From the NCBI GenBank assembly GCA_038087875.1, contig CM075989.1:20152001-20212000 (forward strand): a stretch of DNA of 60,000 nucleotides, written 5' to 3'. Positions 920 to 51,409 of this stretch are shown here, in pieces. The stretch comes from Malacoraja senta (taxonomy: Eukaryota). A program made the position numbers and the translations under genes. Each line of letters starts with the position of its first letter. The stretch's first letter is position 1. A model generated the notes under the pieces. That model had not been told where the DNA came from. It was given only the letters and a program-made list of their open reading frames with translations, and did not search any database.

Positions 920-1083
920 CGGGGTCAAGGAAAGAGCGTTCACGTTGCGGCCCTGTTTCCACCAATCTTTCCAACACCACGCACAAGAAGCGCAAGACAG
1001 ACTCCATTGTGCAGATGCCGAGAAGTGTGTTCAGCTCTGGCTGAACAACTTCTAATCTTGTATGTGGACTCGATAAGAAGAAG
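920..1083 (+). mobile_element. Short non-autonomous Vingi/Ingi-like retroelement with 5' ribozyme and (GAA)n tail
   Basis: TSD ATTGAGAGA(T/A)GC at 908-919 and 1084-1095; AAGAAGAAG tail. 3' part reads LHCADAEKCVQLWLNNF*, loosely resembling the LINE C-termini at 11565 and 22341. Confidence 0.75.
921..972 (+). ncRNA. Minimal HDV-like (CPEB3-type) self-cleaving ribozyme
   Basis: P1 GGGGTC/GGCCCT, J1/2 AA, P2 GGAAAGA/TCTTTCC, P3 GCG/TGC, L3 TTCACGT, J1/4 GT, P4 replaced by TTCCA, J4/2 CCAA. G-U wobble at the first pair. Confidence 0.8.
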
Positions 1084-2249
1084 ATTGAGAGAAGCAAAAA
1101 TAAAAGAGAAAATTATTTTGATCATTTCAAAAAAAACCTCAAGAAATATTTATCTTCAGTTGAATGTTTTAACTCCTACTGTATTACATTTAGAAATCCC
1201 CTTGACTCTCAGGGACTGTTTGCAGTCCTTTTTTTTAAAAAGATTGCAGTGAATCCTTACAAAAATATTTTCTTCAGGTATGAAATCATACCGTTTCTTT
1301 CAAACTGATAAGTGTTTTGCCTTTTTTGCATCTTGCATAGACAATGAATTAATATAAAGCTTAGAAATTATTATCTGTACAGTTTGCCTGTAATTTTCCA
1401 ACACTTTTGAAAAGGCAAATGATTCATTTAATAAATAAGTTTCTGTTCCATTCGAGAATGATGTTTTAGGTACAGAATTAATTAATGGCAAAAAATGACA
1501 TTTTTGATAAAAATTAAGAGGATGTGTGCATCATACGAGTTCCAATTCTATTGCACCTCGAAATCCTGCTAAAAATTGGAGTTACAAGAAACTGCGGACG
1601 CTGGAATCTTGAGCAGGTGCACATGGAAACTATCTGTTTCAACATCCTGCCAAAGTAAACAGTAAGTGCTGGGGTAACTCATTGTGTCAGGCAGCATCTC
1701 TGACGACATGGATAGGCCTCCAGAGATGCCCTCCTGAGATTCCAATCAATGTCCCCCTGAGATGCTGCCTGACCTGTTGAGTTACTCAAAGACTTTGTGT
1801 TTTGCTCAAGATTTCAGCGTCTGTAGTTCTTTGTTTCCCTAAAGTAAACACTAGTTGGGTTTCAATACATATCACCCTTATTCATCAATATTGGATCAAA
1901 TTTGTAAAAAATGCCTTCCCAACAACCTTGTTGGAGTTTTTCTCTTTAATGTCTGTAGACTCTGCACTACTCTCAGGATCAGTTGGATGAACTGTAAAGA
2001 TGGTAAAAATCAGTAAAGTTTCAGATTCCGTGCTAAGAGAGACATAGCGTGACTTGGCACCAGAGCAACACATTCATATGGATGGTGTTTACAACATCGT
2101 TATATGTACAGACTGAATAAAAAGCGAGTTGTGATGGCCAGATAGCATCACTTGGACTGGCCAACCTGACCCACATCTCACCCTCTATCCTGTGGATTTC
2201 TGGAAGAGATGAGAAATTGGCTCGAAACTCAAACCAAGTAATGTCAAGT

Positions 2250-2815: not shown

Positions 2816-5618
2816 AATGTCACCCAATGTTCAGATACGGATGAGATAAATCGATTAGCAGCTAAATTCATCCCAGTTTATTATAATTATGAGTCTAGTT
2901 ACAAGATCATTTGGAAATATTTCATCAATTTCATATATGTAGCATCCATTTTAACAACTTTATAAAATAGTATGCAGAGATATTAGTAACATATGCCTTA
3001 GGTTGTTGCACATTATTTCAGTGGTCGCCATGTATCACGTTAATTTTTTCTCCTAAAAAGTTGTTTTTAAAAAGAAAACTAAAACCGTGCACTTATTATT
3101 GTCATCTCACAGGTGTTTCACCTTGTCTGATAATAAAAGTAGCATATTGCAGTGCATGCAACCATCTGCTGCAAGAGTGAATTTCAGATTCCGTGCTAAG
3201 AGAGACCTAGCGTGACTTGGCACTGCTGGAACACATTCATTTGGATGGTATTTATAACAGGTAACTTGAAAGTTTGAACTCCTCTGCTTGGCTTTATCTC
3301 TGGTGCTTCATTTTGATCCAGATGTGAGCTGCATTATCAAATACAAGGTCTAATTTCACCTATAATTCCATCTGTTCGGCAGTCTGCCAACTGCTCTGCT
3401 ATATATTTGCTTTTGATAGGGTGCAATGTTACACTGAAAGCCTTTATTGTGGGTTTCTCCTTAGATGTGCTAATATACAGTCTAGAAAGTTGTTATGTCA
3501 CTCAGTCAGCTGAATGGCAATGAATAAGGCAACTCCAATATTCTCATACTTGGGAGGGAGTAAGAGATTTTTTGTATGCAGAATAAGTATACAAATCATA
3601 TTTTATTACTCATTGCCTTGGACATAAATAACCAAAAATTACTATTAAAATTGTTATCACAATGACATAATTTGCTAAATTCATATAAATATGCACATAT
3701 AAAGAAAAGAGAAACAATGAATTTGCAGATGCTGGTTTGCCAAGAAAAAAAGACAAAGTGTTGGAGTAACTCAGTGGGCCAAGCAGCATCTCTGGAGAAT
3801 ATAGATAGGTGAAATTCTGAGAAGGGTTTGAAGAAGGGTCCTAACCTGAAATGTTCTCCAGATATGTCTCCTGGCCTTCATAGTTACTGCAGCATTTTTT
3901 TAAAAACATATTATAACTTAGGGTTTGCCAGAAATGCCTAGAATAATTGCCATTGTAAGTTCCAACAAGTGTCATAGTAAATCTTCATGCACCAGGAGAA
4001 TATATAAACAAGATTTTGATTAAGGTACACCATTTGATTACATACTTGTATTCCAACTCCCCCAATAAATTAATTTGAGTTTTGTATTCCAAATTAGGTT
4101 TTTAAACATATAATTAAAATAACTAGCATTTCTTGCTGAACAACGCTGACACCAATGTATAGTGAACAATGCTGGCTACTCCCTCAATTTCCCCAGGAGT
4201 TGGCATGCAGTGATGATACTGTTGCCGATTATTAGGGAAACCCACCCAGCCCCGGCAAGAATTTGACTTGAAGATGTTCACAGTTACAGGCTTCATGGGC
4301 ATGTCCTTCTTTCCTTTAGGAAAGATTAGGGTACGAGAATTGCTACTGCGCAGCATTGCATTTTTTTGCATTCAATAGACTTCTATCAAAACCTCAATGG
4401 ATATACGTAACAAGTAGTATGCCATTAACATGCACGGAGAAATTCATTTAACTTACCTACACATCAAATAAACTGTCATTTTCCAGCCTATAACCTCCAG
4501 ATATTTATCAGAATGAGTGGAGGAAGTCAGTGAGCTGTGAATTCTAGTGGGGGCCAAGTATATATAGGTTGGATCCGGAACAAATTTCTGCCCTTAAGTA
4601 TTGGACAAATATAAGACAATTTTACAAATAAAATGCACACATGCGATTCCATTATTCCATTCAATAGATTTTCTACACAAGTATATCACCAAACAGTTGC
4701 CTCCACATCCAAACAAGACTGCATTCAATGCACTGAAATTGTTCTACCTGGCTAATGGAATCGGGGAGATATAGCATGGATGTAGGGCCCACTGTCCATG
4801 CTCATACCCACAGTCCATGCTCATATCAATACTCTTTTCTTGAACTGTCTTAAATTCCTAATCCTACTTTTAAACCAATTTATTTTCCTTATATTCACAT
4901 ACTCCCATCCTTCACTTCCAAGTTCTGCCATGCCAATATGTCTTTAACTCATTTTCTACATGTTGTTGGCAAGGCCAGCATTTGTTGCTACCCCGAAACA
5001 CCCTGAGAAGTGGTGGTGAGTCACCTTGAACTATGCGATCTTTCCAGTGAAGGTACCAAACCATTGCTATTTCCAACTCAATATATTGTGCAAGTTTGAG
5101 AGGAATCTGCATGCGCTTGTTACCCGTACCTATATCAATGGATATGAAGGCTTTGAGATGCTTTTGGAGCAGCCAAGGCAAATAACAGGAGTACATTTGT
5201 AAACGATACTCACAGAAACCAATATGTGACAGTGGTGGAGTTGTGAATATTCTGGGCGATTGATGGGATGTGCCAATCAGCTGAGCTGGTTTATCCTGGA
5301 TGGTTTGAAGCTTCTTGTGAGACGAAGTGCTGCCAGTCACAGAATCAGACAGCATGGAAACAGGCCCTTTGGCCCCACTCATCCCTGCTGACCAGGATGC
5401 CCCATTTAAGCTAGTCCCATTTGCCCGCATTTGGCATCCTACTGTTGTGAAGAGCGCATTGATTGAGGGAAAGTGAGAACAAAAACCCTAAGGCAGTTGA
5501 AATTAAGTAAACATAAGCATTAAAATATGAAAGAGTCGATTCAAAGTTCTCTACCCTGTGTAAAAATAATTTATTATCTGTCCCTTCAAAGTGTTCACCT
5601 TGTTCTCGAAAAGGCAGA

Positions 5619-6265
5619 AGGGCCTGTCCCACTTAGGCGATTTTTTCGGTGACTGCCGGCGACTGTTACAGTCGTAGCAGGTCGCCGAAAAAGCGGCGAC
5701 TGGACCCTCCCCTCCGTCAATGTCTACGACAAGCTACGACAACCTACCACCTAGTCGACGTCAAGCTACCAACAACCGGCGACTCATTAGGACATCCACC
5801 TATGACCACACCTACGACAACCTATCACCACACAGGCGACAACCAAAGTCAACCGACATCCATCCGCGACAAGCTACGATAAGCAACGACACTGTCGGCG
5901 ACAACTGAATACAATTCAGTTGCCGGTACCTGTCGCCGGTTGACGTAGGTTGACATAGGTAGTCGCAAATGGAATTCACCAAGGTCAGCACCCGGCGACA
6001 ACCAACAACACCTGGCAACAACCTGCCTCGTCCTGGCGACAACCGGCGAACGCACCTACGATAGGAGAAAATAAGCTGCGACAAGCCCACAGTCGCCGAA
6101 AAGTTTTGAACATTTCAAAATCCAGCGGCGACCAGAAAAACGTTACGACTCTTTAGGCGACTTGAGGAGACTACTCACGTCCATACAGGCGTCACCCCGC
6201 GACCATGTGGCGACAGCCTAATCGCCTGTAGTCACCGAAAAAATCACCTAAGTGGGACAGGGGCT
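5619..6265. mobile_element. Non-autonomous DNA transposon (MITE), PIF/Harbinger-like
   Basis: ~45-bp TIRs AG(GG/CC)CCTGTCCCACTTAGG(C/T)GATTTTTTCGGTGACT...; 3-bp TSD AGA (5616-5618, 6266-6268). CpG-rich interior with many GGCGAC/GTCGCC motifs; no transposase ORF. Confidence 0.85.
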
Positions 6266-10089: not shown

Positions 10090-10272
10090 TATACAAAAAT
10101 GCTGGAGAAACTCAGCGGGTGCAGCAGCATCTATGGAGCAAAGGAAATAGGCAACGTTTCGGTCCGAAACGTTGCCTATTTCCTTCGCTCCATAGATGCT
10201 GCTGCACCCGCTGAGTTTCTCCAGCATTTTTGTGTACCTTCGATTTTCCAGCATCTGCAGTTCCTTCTTAAA
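10090..10272. mobile_element. Penelope-derived fold-back element (second subfamily)
   Basis: Near-perfect palindrome centred on GCAACGTTTCGG-T-CCGAAACGTTGC; flanked by GA(A/C)GAAGGGTAT. Confidence 0.8.
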
Positions 10273-46590: not shown

Positions 46591-48543
46591 TGAAGAGGCA
46601 GCATACAGATCACAGACATGCCTCAGATTTAAATTGTTGACTCTTTTCAAGATATCTGGTGTTGTACCCCTTAATTTTAGCTTGACATGAAACTGGAGTT
46701 AAACCTTTGATTTTTTGTGCACTCGGAGCACTTTGTTCATAGCTCATAAGTTCTAGGAGCAGAATTAGGCCATTCGGCCCTTCAAGTCTACTCCTCCATT
46801 CAATCGTGGCTGATCTATCTTTCCCTCTCAACCACCTTCTCCTGACTTTGCGCCATAACCCCTGACACCCGTACTAATCAAGAATCAGCAATACTTTGCT
46901 GTCACAATAAAGCAAGAAAAAAGAAGATTTTCACTGAAATTAAACTGTCTGTGACAATTGATAACTGCACTTGGCTAAGATTTGTTATTTTTTTTAAAGT
47001 TGCAGTTCATTACAGGTTTAACTTTCCGTGTCTTCAGTCAATGAGTGGAGGAAATAATCAGCAGAGGAAAAAGGGTTTCCTTACTTCCTGTACTCATGTG
47101 TGTCTCCTGGTGGGTTGCTTAAGGAACTGTTGACATTCTTCGGAACTTTAAACCCAGAGTTGTTCAAGTCAGCCAGATGCACAGGGCAGGCTGGCGAGAC
47201 GGAAAATAACATGATAAAGGATTATGTAGCGTTGTGGGCCAACATAAGCTGTCCTTTTGTGGAGCAGAAGTGCAAGTGTCGCAGATTGATACGTTTATTT
47301 GTCACAATCCAGGTTGCAATTCCCTTTCTTATAAAAATATAAGATTTTGTTGTTTTACATTTTGACCTAAATCTGGGGAATTTGGGCTGTCTTTACTTTA
47401 TTTTTTCCATTTTATTTTCATTTTTATACACAACACTGTCAGTTTTTGGGGGCAAATGCTTTATTTTTTTTACCATTTAATTTGTTGCTTTACTTTAACA
47501 TTTTGTATTATTGCTGTTACTATAGTATCCTCATTGATTAAATGTTAATGGACAAACTATACAACATTTTTATTTAACTACATGATATTGTTCATTATTT
47601 AGTTTCTTTTAAGTAATGCCTTTGACTTGTTGCTCCATTAAGAAACTCCATTGTGAGTTTATAAGCCATTGCATTGTACTTGCAATTTCTACAGCTGTTA
47701 AAGCCATAACTGTGTTTTTGAGCAATCACACCACTTTATTGCACATTGCAATCATAATCCCTGTTTATCTTTTATGGCATTGTTTCAAAATGCTGTAAAA
47801 CCATAAATAATATTCCTGAAATTGGTTCCTTATTAAAAATTTGAGGTCATTCTAAACTTGGTTCTCTTGTTAGCTCTTCAGAAATCAAACCTTGTTAACC
47901 ATCCTTAGACAGTACTAGAATAATGTTCAGGTATAAATGTAATGTTATTTCAAGCAGATCCAGATTTGAAACAACCGTCTCTGAATGTGCGTAAAATCAC
48001 AATATTTTAAAAAGGAATGTATTTGGAATAACAAATACATGTCGCTTTACCTATTTTTCAGCCATATAGATATAATAAATTGCTGTGCAAATTGTTTTAA
48101 TATCTCAACTAAAGAAATCTAGCATTAACAACAGTACAAGCTGATGCAAAAGGCAATTTCACCAAAACCCACTTTCCCGGTAATTTACTTTTCAAATGTC
48201 TACTCACATGAAACGCAGATAACTCTAATGATTTTTTACTTCAGTCTAAAGTGTTATCTGATATCTCTGTTTCTTGTCAGTTTGAATAAAAGGGATAATT
48301 TCTGCAAACGTTTACCAGCTGTCAACTAATACATTTGCAGAACTAAAATATGATGGTTACGTATCGCTGAGAGCTACACATTTAACAAAAAACGAGCACC
48401 AGATGTTTCAAACTCGCATAAATGATTTTGGATAGACTCTCAATTTGCTTTGTAAAACCTAGTAAACTTGAAATTATGCACTCATTTGATTTGTTAAACC
48501 CCTTTAATCTATATCTTTCCAAGCTAATTAAAGTATTACTTAC

Positions 48544-48832
48544 AGTAATTGCAGCTGGGATTAACCGTGCCTTTGATTTTGCCCTTTTTATCAATCCTCA
48601 GATAAAACTGTGTCCGACAGAAAAGTTTTCGTATTCTTACATCTCCACCTTCCATGTAGTCGTAACTTCTGGTGTGCCGCTCAGGACTGGTGGAACAGTT
48701 CACGCTTGCAGCTAGTTGTTCTGGAGTCATGTCATTGCAAGCGATAGACACATTCCCTGCTAGAAGAATACAATGAAAGTATAGTTTGTACAACAAAGTT
48801 GGCAGGATCCATATCTGCATCCATTTGCGCAT
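48544..48832 (-). CDS. FGF7: FGF7 (keratinocyte growth factor) coding exon 1 (aa 1-96 + 1 nt)
   Basis: Translates [96 protein letters not shown]. Signal peptide followed by the FGF7-diagnostic CNDMTPEQ and [15 protein letters not shown]. 289 nt, phase 1, GTAAG donor at 48543-48539. Confidence 0.97.
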
Positions 48833-49150: not shown

Positions 49151-49754
49151 CTGCAAGCAGAAGTATCACTTAACTTTAACAAGCCATTACAGTCAGCTGT
49201 TACAAATAAATTACAACCATGGCAACATGCTTGGAGGTGTATACCAATTTTTTTTTTTAAGTTCTAGTTAGTTGCCAGTTTTCACTTTAAAAAATAAATG
49301 TAAAACCCAAAACTAGAAAAGATAACTTGCTTTTCCAAATGTTGCTGTGTGCTACGATATTAGTCTTTTATCTGTAATTTAAAAAGTGTGATATGTGCAG
49401 CATGGAATATGTTCTACATTACTATTCCACTGCTGTTTCAACTGCTCGGCTAAACCCTGTTGCTTAATCAATCCTCCCGGCTTCTGTACACTTGTCATCT
49501 TGCATGCATTCATTCAAAAGTAATCACAACATATTTTATGTGGTAAAAATCAAATGCTTTCCATGGAATTTTCCCATGTTTCCTAAACACAATTCATGTT
49601 TTGCTGTATCGACTGGCTGTAAGCATTCACAACTACCTCAATGTCAATCCACATGTTTAACCTAAGCCAGTCTAATTCCCCCAAAAAAATTCCCTTGGCA
49701 AAATAGTTTTGTAGAAATAAATGCAATACTGTACAATTTCTGATAAAAACTTAC

Positions 49755-49977: not shown

Positions 49978-50463
49978 CTTGGAAGTAATTAGATCTTAGC
50001 CAGTCAGCTGTCAGTTGGCAGCACGAACAAAGGAGAAGTGAGGTTTCCTTTGTCAGATGTCCACATGGTCATCTGAGGGAGCTATGAACTCAGAGAGGGC
50101 TTTCTCATTTCCACACGATGTCTCCTTTCTTTATTCTCTGCTCTGTAATTCCATTCTGCTACAATCATGGGAGTAATAACGTGCTGTTCTCCACCACATA
50201 TATTCCCAGCTAGGAAAAACAAACCATTCATTTTCCCTTCATATTCATTGTGCTTTTAGGAACTATACATTCATTCAGCCACCGAAGGTAATTGGGTGCC
50301 TTTTGTTATGTATAAAATTTAACGTGCTAAAACAACTGAAAATCTTCATGTGGTCTATTATTGGTATGTTAAATTTAAAATATTCCCCTCTATCAAGTAA
50401 GATAGCAGCTGGACAGATTATACTATCTAGTTTTTTCTATTCAAAACTCTGAATGTTTCATAC

Positions 50464-50600
50464 TTCTTCTTGCGTATAGTGTGCACAGCCTAAAGTTGGA
50501 GGACAACTTGTTCTGTTTGATCTTCTGTTTGTGCACGCCTGGTCGATTGCATTCGTCGAAACAGGGTAGATCACGTGAAGGTTGCAATCTTCCCACCCCG
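50464..50600 (-). mobile_element. Short non-autonomous Vingi/Ingi-like retroelement with 5' ribozyme and (GAA)n tail
   Basis: Perfect TSD ATGTTTCATAC at 50453-50463 and 50601-50611. 3' end CAACTTTAGGCTGTGCACACTATACGCAAGAAGAA is shared with the LINE fragment ending near 11740. Confidence 0.85.
50545..50599 (-). ncRNA. Minimal HDV-like (CPEB3-type) self-cleaving ribozyme
   Basis: P1 GGGGTGG/CTACCCT, J1/2 GAA, P2 GATTGCA/TGCAATC, P3 ACC/GAT (one mismatch), L3 TTCACGT, J1/4 GT, TTCGA, J4/2 CGAA. Confidence 0.82.
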
Positions 50601-51236
50601 ATGTTTCATACGATGCCTACTGGCATATTGTTCTGTGGAGGTTTCTACTTGAGGCACTGCGGGGAAAAGATTTGCATGCTCTCGTGCTCCAAATCTTTTT
50701 GAAGGGACACTTCAATTAGAGTGGCCACCAATAATCTCAAATCCTTGATTACAAGGAACATCTCTTATCACAGTCCATTAAGGCAATGGTTTTATGAATA
50801 TGAAAACCAATAACTCATAAATGCTGTTGCCGTGAATGAGTTATGTGCTTTCATTTAAAGGAAGAGTTCCTGGAATTATTCATTAGGCTGAAATATTATG
50901 GATATGTGGTTCCAGTTAGGATCCGAAGTATCTGAAAATTAATTGAAAGCCATGATAAGTTAGTGTTATTTTGTACGTGCATATAATTAGCAATCAACCT
51001 TGTACAATAACATCTTCCTTCATCCCTTGCACATTTAATCTAATTAGTACAGTTTTTTAAATAGCCACTATATTTTAGATCTAGGAAAACAGGTTGGTGA
51101 GCTATTAAAAAAAAAGCTGATGATAAAAGTATATATTTTATGTAGCTGTAAAAACAAAGTTTCCATCAGAGTAGCACATGTTTTTATCTCCATTATATTT
51201 CATCACTTGACACATGCAAAACTTTCCTATTATACA

Positions 51237-51409
51237 AAGTGTTTAAGAAGGAACTGCAGATGCTGGAAAATCGAAGGTAGACAAAAGTGCTGGAGAAACT
51301 CAGCGGGTGCAGCAGCATCCTGAAGAGGGGTTTCGGCCCGAAACGTTTCCTATTTCCTTCGTTCCATAGATGCTGCTGCACCCGCTGAGTTTCTCCAGCA
51401 CTTTTGTCT
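51237..51409. mobile_element. Penelope-derived fold-back element with TSD
   Basis: Perfect 16-bp TSD ACTTTCCTATTATACA at 51221-51236 and 51410-51425. Confidence 0.85.

Follow-up and report, generated by a model that had tools for sequence, protein, structure and literature searches.

In 60,000 nucleotides of Malacoraja senta DNA (the window), a short minus-strand sequence with the fold of an HDV-like ribozyme lies upstream of the FGF7 exons, which raises the question of whether it acts on FGF7 or is the remains of a mobile element and, in the second case, what mobilised it. Our reading, which we consider well supported, is that it is a decayed copy of a 136-bp retroposon family without an ORF, that this family likely arose by internal deletion from a Vingi-type LINE, whose protein likely copies it in trans, and that the position of the copy near FGF7 is likely incidental. 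The element comprises the following features.

50464..50599, minus strand: non-autonomous retroposon of family A, 136 bp, no ORF
50545..50599, minus strand: predicted HDV-like ribozyme without P4, about 54-55 nt, cleavage predicted between 50600 and 50599
50555, minus strand: predicted catalytic C in J4/2 (CGAA), from the fold prediction
50570..50572, minus strand: 3' strand of P3, GAT, with a copy-specific mismatch at 50571
50530..50539, minus strand: 5' arm of an end-to-end stem, directly after P2
50478..50487, minus strand: 3' arm of the end-to-end stem, damaged in this copy, directly before the tail
50464..50477, minus strand: 3' end motif plus (GAA)n tail, resembling those of Vingi-like LINEs
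50601..50611, minus strand: upstream copy of the 11-bp TSD, a perfect match to the downstream copy
50453..50463, minus strand: downstream copy of the 11-bp TSD, a perfect match to the upstream copy
50600..50600, minus strand: single extra C between TSD and G1, sporadic in family A

The first-pass annotation had read P1, P2, P3, L3, J1/4 and the junction on the minus strand, and a re-parse of 50599-50545 bears out that reading. G1 of the ribozyme is 50599 (minus strand) and forms a G1-U pair; P1 (50599-50593 with 50569-50563) has seven of seven pairs, with two G-U pairs in addition to G1-U, P2 (50589-50583 with 50551-50545) is likewise complete at seven of seven, and P3 (ACC/GAT) contains a single C-A mismatch, at 50571. 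L3 reads TTCACGT, J1/4 reads GT and a 5-nt loop replaces P4. A structure descriptor run over the 60-kb window matched only two sites, this copy and another at position 921, and had no match in any of 200 order-3 Markov 60-kb control windows (200/200). The copy at 50464..50599 was unmatched in an Rfam search at E<=1; the Rfam models of the HDV clan include P4. Plain MFE folding of this copy missed the pseudoknot, and its sequence folded no better than shuffles (z 0.57 for the whole element, -0.66 for the 3' part). A tRNA-derived SINE was considered and rejected, as ARAGORN detected no tRNA gene in the element, which has no tRNA-like head, and the 5' end is occupied by the ribozyme fold.

Genome searches returned 2,756 candidate copies of family A; exact matches numbered 1,235 for the 28-base ribozyme core and 3,048 for the 3' end, with 0 for the reversed control in both cases. 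Family A is a set of at least 3,048 dispersed copies without an ORF that start at G1 and end in (GAA)n. Among the 30 closest copies, which as BLAST top matches over-represent full-length elements, 28 begin at G1, every one ends in (GAA)n, 24 have a TSD detectable within 0-2 nt of G1 and 21 keep all P1/P2/P3 pairs; TSD length is 11-12 bp in 25/47 copies of families A and B pooled. The lack of an ORF, the TSD, the microsatellite tail and the many dispersed copies are features of non-autonomous bipartite LINEs (SIDEs).

Comparison with these relatives also separates what is particular to the copy from what belongs to the family. The extra C between the 11-bp TSD and G1, pointed out in the first-pass annotation, is real here and sporadic in the family, because 17 of the 24 TSD-bearing copies have no extra base, six have one (A, C, G or T) and one has two, counts obtained with a TSD finder that tolerates one mismatch and may undercount extra bases; a constant extra C as a family feature was rejected, being present in a minority of TSD-bearing copies. 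GGT had been expected as the family state of the 3' strand of P3, rightly so, with GGT in 25 of the 30 closest copies, GAT in four and AGT in one. Since most close copies have a paired P3, the mismatch at 50571 reflects decay of this copy. Judged from the predicted fold, it would likely cut poorly or not at all. Against the commonest state of its 27 closest full-length relatives, the copy has nine differences (one inserted base and eight substitutions, four listed difference rows being a single alignment artefact of the inserted base), and the substitution at 50501, one of the eight, is common among the family-A copies listed in the 3'-end match set. Covariation, the remaining claim about the fold, is seen between families only; within family A no two-sided change occurs among 11 distinct rows, as expected of copies decaying after insertion.

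The ribozyme interior is altered in 798 family-A matches; about 58 of the 100 listed are internal deletions (hand count), some within composite repeats, and 13 listed matches with a seemingly longer P4 are composite repeats holding a broken family-A fragment (11 regions inspected). In such composite repeats (L251-L270), the ribozyme of the family-A fragment is broken or interrupted, and long tracts rich in pyrimidines follow the fragment. A separate family-A subfamily (L141-L150, L160) has a U-G pair in P1 and another loop, with identical stem arms.

The second descriptor match belongs to another family.

921..1085, plus strand: family B element, about 165 bp, 3' end approximate, with P4-less ribozyme fold, end-to-end stem, short ORF-end-like remnant and (GAA)n tail

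Family B is distinct from family A, with 1,588 candidates in the genome search, and has the same P4-less plan. All P1/P2/P3 pairs of the 921 copy are standard, and it gives a sub-threshold Rfam match to CPEB3 (28.1 bits versus a cut-off of 35, E 0.0024). That two families share one ribozyme architecture, as suggested on first pass, holds for A and B, and the architecture in fact extends to at least 12 families.

Whether the copy near FGF7 serves that gene depends on its orientation, condition and age.

48536..48832, minus strand: FGF7 first coding exon (context), best match among solved structures

The exon at 48832-48536 (minus strand) matches FGF7 at E 3e-17 versus 3e-11 for FGF10 among solved structures. 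Its start codon, at 48832 (minus strand), lies 1.63 kb from the family-A element, which is upstream of the FGF7 exons seen, and a donor-like site at 49754 with an acceptor-like site at 49151 (minus strand) suggests that a non-coding first FGF7 exon may lie between the element and the coding exon. We assume a promoter position for FGF7 placed by similarity to human FGF7. Exons of FAM227B, for which the nearest named match is from a skate (93%), lie on the plus strand on both sides of the window, 24 kb ahead of it and 13 kb beyond it; none was detected inside it (residues 329-351 unplaced). FAM227B is the only gene that could be shown to extend across the site; as it lies on the plus strand, the copy at 50599 is antisense to its host intron. 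The 921 copy runs in the sense direction of the FAM227B intron and is therefore the one, rather than the 50599 copy, that the host pre-mRNA would transcribe and that could cut. The window also holds, at 10106-10221 and 51293-51395, related near-perfect palindromes of ~100-115 bp that are MITE-like and give spurious Rfam miRNA matches.

At the orthologous site, a check proposed on first pass, the element is present in four of four related organisms, in which contigs of the unique flanks run into the family-A element and then stop. One run supports this with 28 bases on one side and 25 on the other, a second with 30 bases left of the element, and for two further relatives the support is limited to 5 and 10 aligned bases together with contig breaks. 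No contig with an empty-site joint was listed in the four organisms. Each run placed 4,500-6,100 contigs on the stretch, nearly all on the element itself, and in one run right-flank cover is absent at 50626-50679. The flanks differ by only ~3-5%. Shared by these relatives, the insertion is therefore older than the splits of the sampled species. At 50703-50705, three of the related organisms have about 41-43 extra bases relative to the window.

The regulatory role proposed on first pass, in which the copy would cut upstream read-through transcripts and thereby insulate or regulate FGF7, finds no support in these observations beyond orientation and proximity, and we regard such co-option as very improbable. 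The copy is sense to FGF7, about 1.6 kb from the start codon, and P1, P2, L3 and the predicted catalytic C are intact; its P3 mismatch and nine differences from 27 relatives are nevertheless as under neutral decay, and the gene shown to span the site runs on the opposite strand. Its retention in four of four related organisms requires no selection at a flank divergence of only ~3-5%, and with more than 3,000 copies in 1.94 Gb some would lie near gene starts anyway.

Taking the copy as a decayed retroposon, we looked for its mobiliser with a pattern for a short RT motif, applied genome-wide, which we take to be typical of Vingi/Ingi. The pattern gave 344 genome matches against 0 in the control, and these represent about 10-11 families of ~3-kb single-ORF LINEs, whose 3' ends carry a CG-containing motif and (GAA)n in most families and (TAAA)n in one. 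In family V1, two copies contain an intact ORF, 991 aa long in one and 1,002 aa in the other, that encodes endonuclease (PF03372/PF14529) and RT (PF00078) domains and no RNase H family at E<=1. Vingi is described, in the available portion of PMC13708176, as a compact single-ORF endonuclease-RT LINE without RNase H, and the matching domain content of V1 suggests that the partner LINEs are Vingi-like. Homologues of the V1 protein occur in lancelet, sea urchin, insects, fish and Anolis (the last at 49% identity over 93%), none of them named Vingi.

Among these LINEs the ribozyme closest to that of family A is found in V9 (26 nt at 85%, E 0.014-0.05), and the tails are similar. An autonomous element with family A's own ends was absent from the LINE copies retrieved; two protein searches for LINE 5' ends yielded ten ribozyme-bearing families and no parent of A or B, and patterns designed to skip family A and reveal a parent returned only subfamilies, mutated copies and composite repeats. 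In related species, another family-A subfamily has a 3' end matching the tail motif of LINE family V3. A two-ORF LINE found by a Pfam endonuclease search was rejected as a partner, because the 30 loci examined showed neither a ribozyme nor similarity to A or B. This LINE (L061-L090) is very young and present in high copy number, its 1,277-aa ORF2 is open in many copies, and the stretches examined held no ribozyme fold.

From this comparison, family A is likely an internally deleted derivative of a Vingi-type LINE, the protein of which would copy A in trans. That an RTE-clade or other LINE mobilised it instead seems to us improbable. No direct parent turned up among the LINE copies retrieved, and according to the accessible text of PMC5786205 RTE, too, gives rise to two-ended derivatives and is predicted to have ribozymes of this kind; nonetheless, the ribozyme core, tail motif and stem geometry of family A match ten resident Vingi-like families, and the abundant two-ORF LINE has neither a ribozyme nor similarity to A or B.

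An HDV-like 5' fold could be parsed in ten of the eleven labelled LINE families, V8 being too degenerate. Comparison of 12 families (the ten LINE families with A and B), using one well-preserved copy per family and stem registers set by hand, revealed standard pairs at 207/211, two-sided changes at 15 of 18 paired positions, including C-G to U-A in P1.1, and the predicted catalytic C in 12/12. The P4 region spans 18-46 nt in the ten LINE families versus a 5-nt loop in A and B, and intact family-A copies contain the nested double pseudoknot (P1, P2, P3, P1.1). Families A and B would thus represent minimal P4-less HDV-like ribozymes in vertebrate retroposons, as predicted from their sequences, with LINE relatives that all keep P4. 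In a V11 copy (L306), P1.1 is U-A rather than C-G, and its 3' end contains a stretch complementary to the 3' strand of P2, a possible alternative pairing.

The P4-less fold could also be a non-catalytic relic, in which loss of P4 left a protective 5' structure and the G1 start arose by other means, such as an internal promoter. Precedents exist in the trypanosome homologue Pr77, which is reported to act also as a promoter (PMC3383444), and in R2 templates, for which fold stability mattered (excerpted text of PMC11331408). We consider a relic unlikely, since both P4-less families retain the predicted catalytic C, L3 and P1.1, and minimal P4-less ribozymes are known to cleave, as passages of PMC10879173 report.

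Beyond the ribozyme, family A is marked by pairing between its two ends: 11 nt starting 4 nt after P2 are fully complementary to 11 nt ending 4 nt before the tail. The corresponding duplex has a predicted energy of -16.2 kcal/mol in the 50464..50599 copy versus -24.7 in family-A copy L009, the 3' part of which folds with z -3.9. The short families A and B both have a perfect end-to-end stem, though without an ORF, and in most families the stem ends 4-5 nt before the tail.

For A, B and ten LINE families, we scored how well the 30 nt that follow P2 pair with the 30 nt that precede the tail; V2, lacking a 3' end, was excluded, and the 5' and 3' ends of V4 and V7 were taken from different copies. 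Cognate ends paired at a mean of -16.2 kcal/mol versus -8.3 for non-cognate ends, and none of 200,000 permutations reached the observed sum, either for all 12 families or for the ten autonomous families alone. The result was stable for windows of 20-50 nt and gone when the 5' window was shifted by 60 nt. The stem is weak in V5 (47/234 interior windows equally good) and V11 (24/234). Because the windows were picked after some stems had been seen, only four metagenome elements count as blind: of 80 held-out metagenome loci, the 24 reaching the N-terminal region were examined, the ribozyme fold appeared in seven of these, representing five families, and both ends were present in four. In a fixed register, three of these four elements form at least 7 of 8 pairs versus 1/60 non-cognate combinations, and one has no end-to-end stem. 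Over all 16 elements, fixed-register pairing was found in 10/16 versus 6/240 non-cognate, with the stems of V4, V6 and V9 lying outside that register; as the families are related, they are not independent events. In the titles, abstracts and passages that our literature search covered, neither an end-to-end stem nor a ribozyme fold in Vingi is reported; either may be deposited in Repbase or Dfam, or described in patents, subscription papers or supplements.

We tentatively propose, with a confidence that falls just short of even, that a family-specific stem closes the RNA of Vingi-type LINEs, that this two-ended structure is what the LINE protein recognises, and that family A, with its thousands of copies in a vertebrate genome, provides a natural minimal template of 135 nt with an active P4-less ribozyme at its head. 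Another use of the stem is a serious alternative: rather than serving as a protein handle, it might loop the LINE RNA and so stabilise it or aid its translation, carry the 5' end to the site of insertion so that the 5' junction can be completed, or promote the template jump that creates a deletion derivative. The sequence data show pairing, not use. The internal deletions in about 58 of 100 listed ribozyme variants and the tandem half-ribozyme repeats in two LINE copies indicate that the RT jumps on structured 5' RNA. These two copies, L217 and L218 (G000 C8:937272 and C4:35489273), have intact ORFs of ~1,000 aa and several tandem repeats of the first half of the ribozyme (~26 nt), which suggest that RT may have slipped repeatedly on the pseudoknot. 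Weighing against a non-handle stem, both short families keep it perfectly without an ORF to translate, and in most families the 3' arm lies 4-5 nt before the tail, the place of LINE 3' recognition hairpins. For the RTE 3' end, only a local hairpin is described in the consulted part of PMC6007223.

On our main reading, the life cycle of family A would run as follows. A copy would be transcribed as a passenger in host Pol II transcripts, and its P4-less ribozyme is predicted to cut at G1, freeing a unit with an exact 5' end, while the nested fold likely shields the uncapped end. The ~10 nt that follow the ribozyme would then base-pair with the ~10 nt in front of the (GAA)n tail; the handle for the LINE protein is likely formed from both ends together, because the autonomous LINEs pair likewise across 3 kb, each family with its own sequence. 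In the established course of TPRT, the endonuclease-RT would nick DNA, copy from the tail and leave a duplication of ~11-12 bp. The copy at 50464..50599 inserted before the sampled species split and later acquired the P3 mismatch and stem damage. Release of the element from a co-transcript by its ribozyme, followed by TPRT, is described for L1Tc, R2 and RTE in the excerpts of PMC4035085 and PMC6765202.

Several known systems resemble family A in part. The trypanosome NARTc, RIME and SIDER, derivatives of L1Tc/ingi with Pr77, are similarly short, internally deleted and without an ORF, and an HDV-like 5' ribozyme frees them from co-transcripts (PMC4035085, in part); their ribozymes have P4 and at least 77 nt, whereas that of family A is P4-less at ~54 nt, its host is a vertebrate and its tail is (GAA)n, and the same text, as far as available, mentions no end-to-end stem. 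R2 SIDEs, as presented in part of PMC3414825, are also internally deleted non-LTR elements keeping a 5' HDV-like ribozyme and the 3' end, but R2 is rDNA-specific with a different endonuclease, whereas family A is dispersed with TSDs of ~11-12 bp. The CPEB3 ribozyme (RF00622) offers an HDV fold in a vertebrate intron and the sub-threshold match to the 921 copy; it is single-copy, conserved and has P4, in contrast to the mobile, multicopy family A, of which the 50599 copy is unmatched. Because ribozyme-headed short LINE derivatives are known, the single copy at 50464..50599 is ordinary.

Similar in plan are non-autonomous Vingi derivatives such as those of Vingi-1_EE, which, as family A likely does, retain nothing but the two ends of a compact LINE with a single endonuclease-RT ORF and no RNase H (passages of PMC5786205); to these, family A adds a ribozyme fold and an end-to-end stem, both recognised by sequence. 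Six clades with 5' ribozymes are named in those passages, Vingi not among them. The drz-Mtgn and theta ribozymes likewise lack P4 and keep P1, P2, P3 and a C-containing J4/2, and minimal P4-less ribozymes occur to nearly 99% in Caudoviricetes phages, often after tRNAs, with origin and function described as largely open (PMC10879173, in the portion available). Unlike these, the P4-less form of families A and B heads thousands of vertebrate retroposon copies.

A P4-less form reported, in the sources as available, almost only from phages is thus found here in two vertebrate retroposon families with thousands of copies. Vingi proteins are in use for RNA-templated gene writing from donors that contain both UTRs (PMC13708176, in part), and for these donors the stem would therefore set a design rule. 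PMC5786205, in passages, calls it unknown why two-ended derivatives arise in only a few LINE clades; the end-to-end stem offers a candidate mechanism, and two-ended recognition would explain why the Vingi-type group breeds derivatives that keep both ends.
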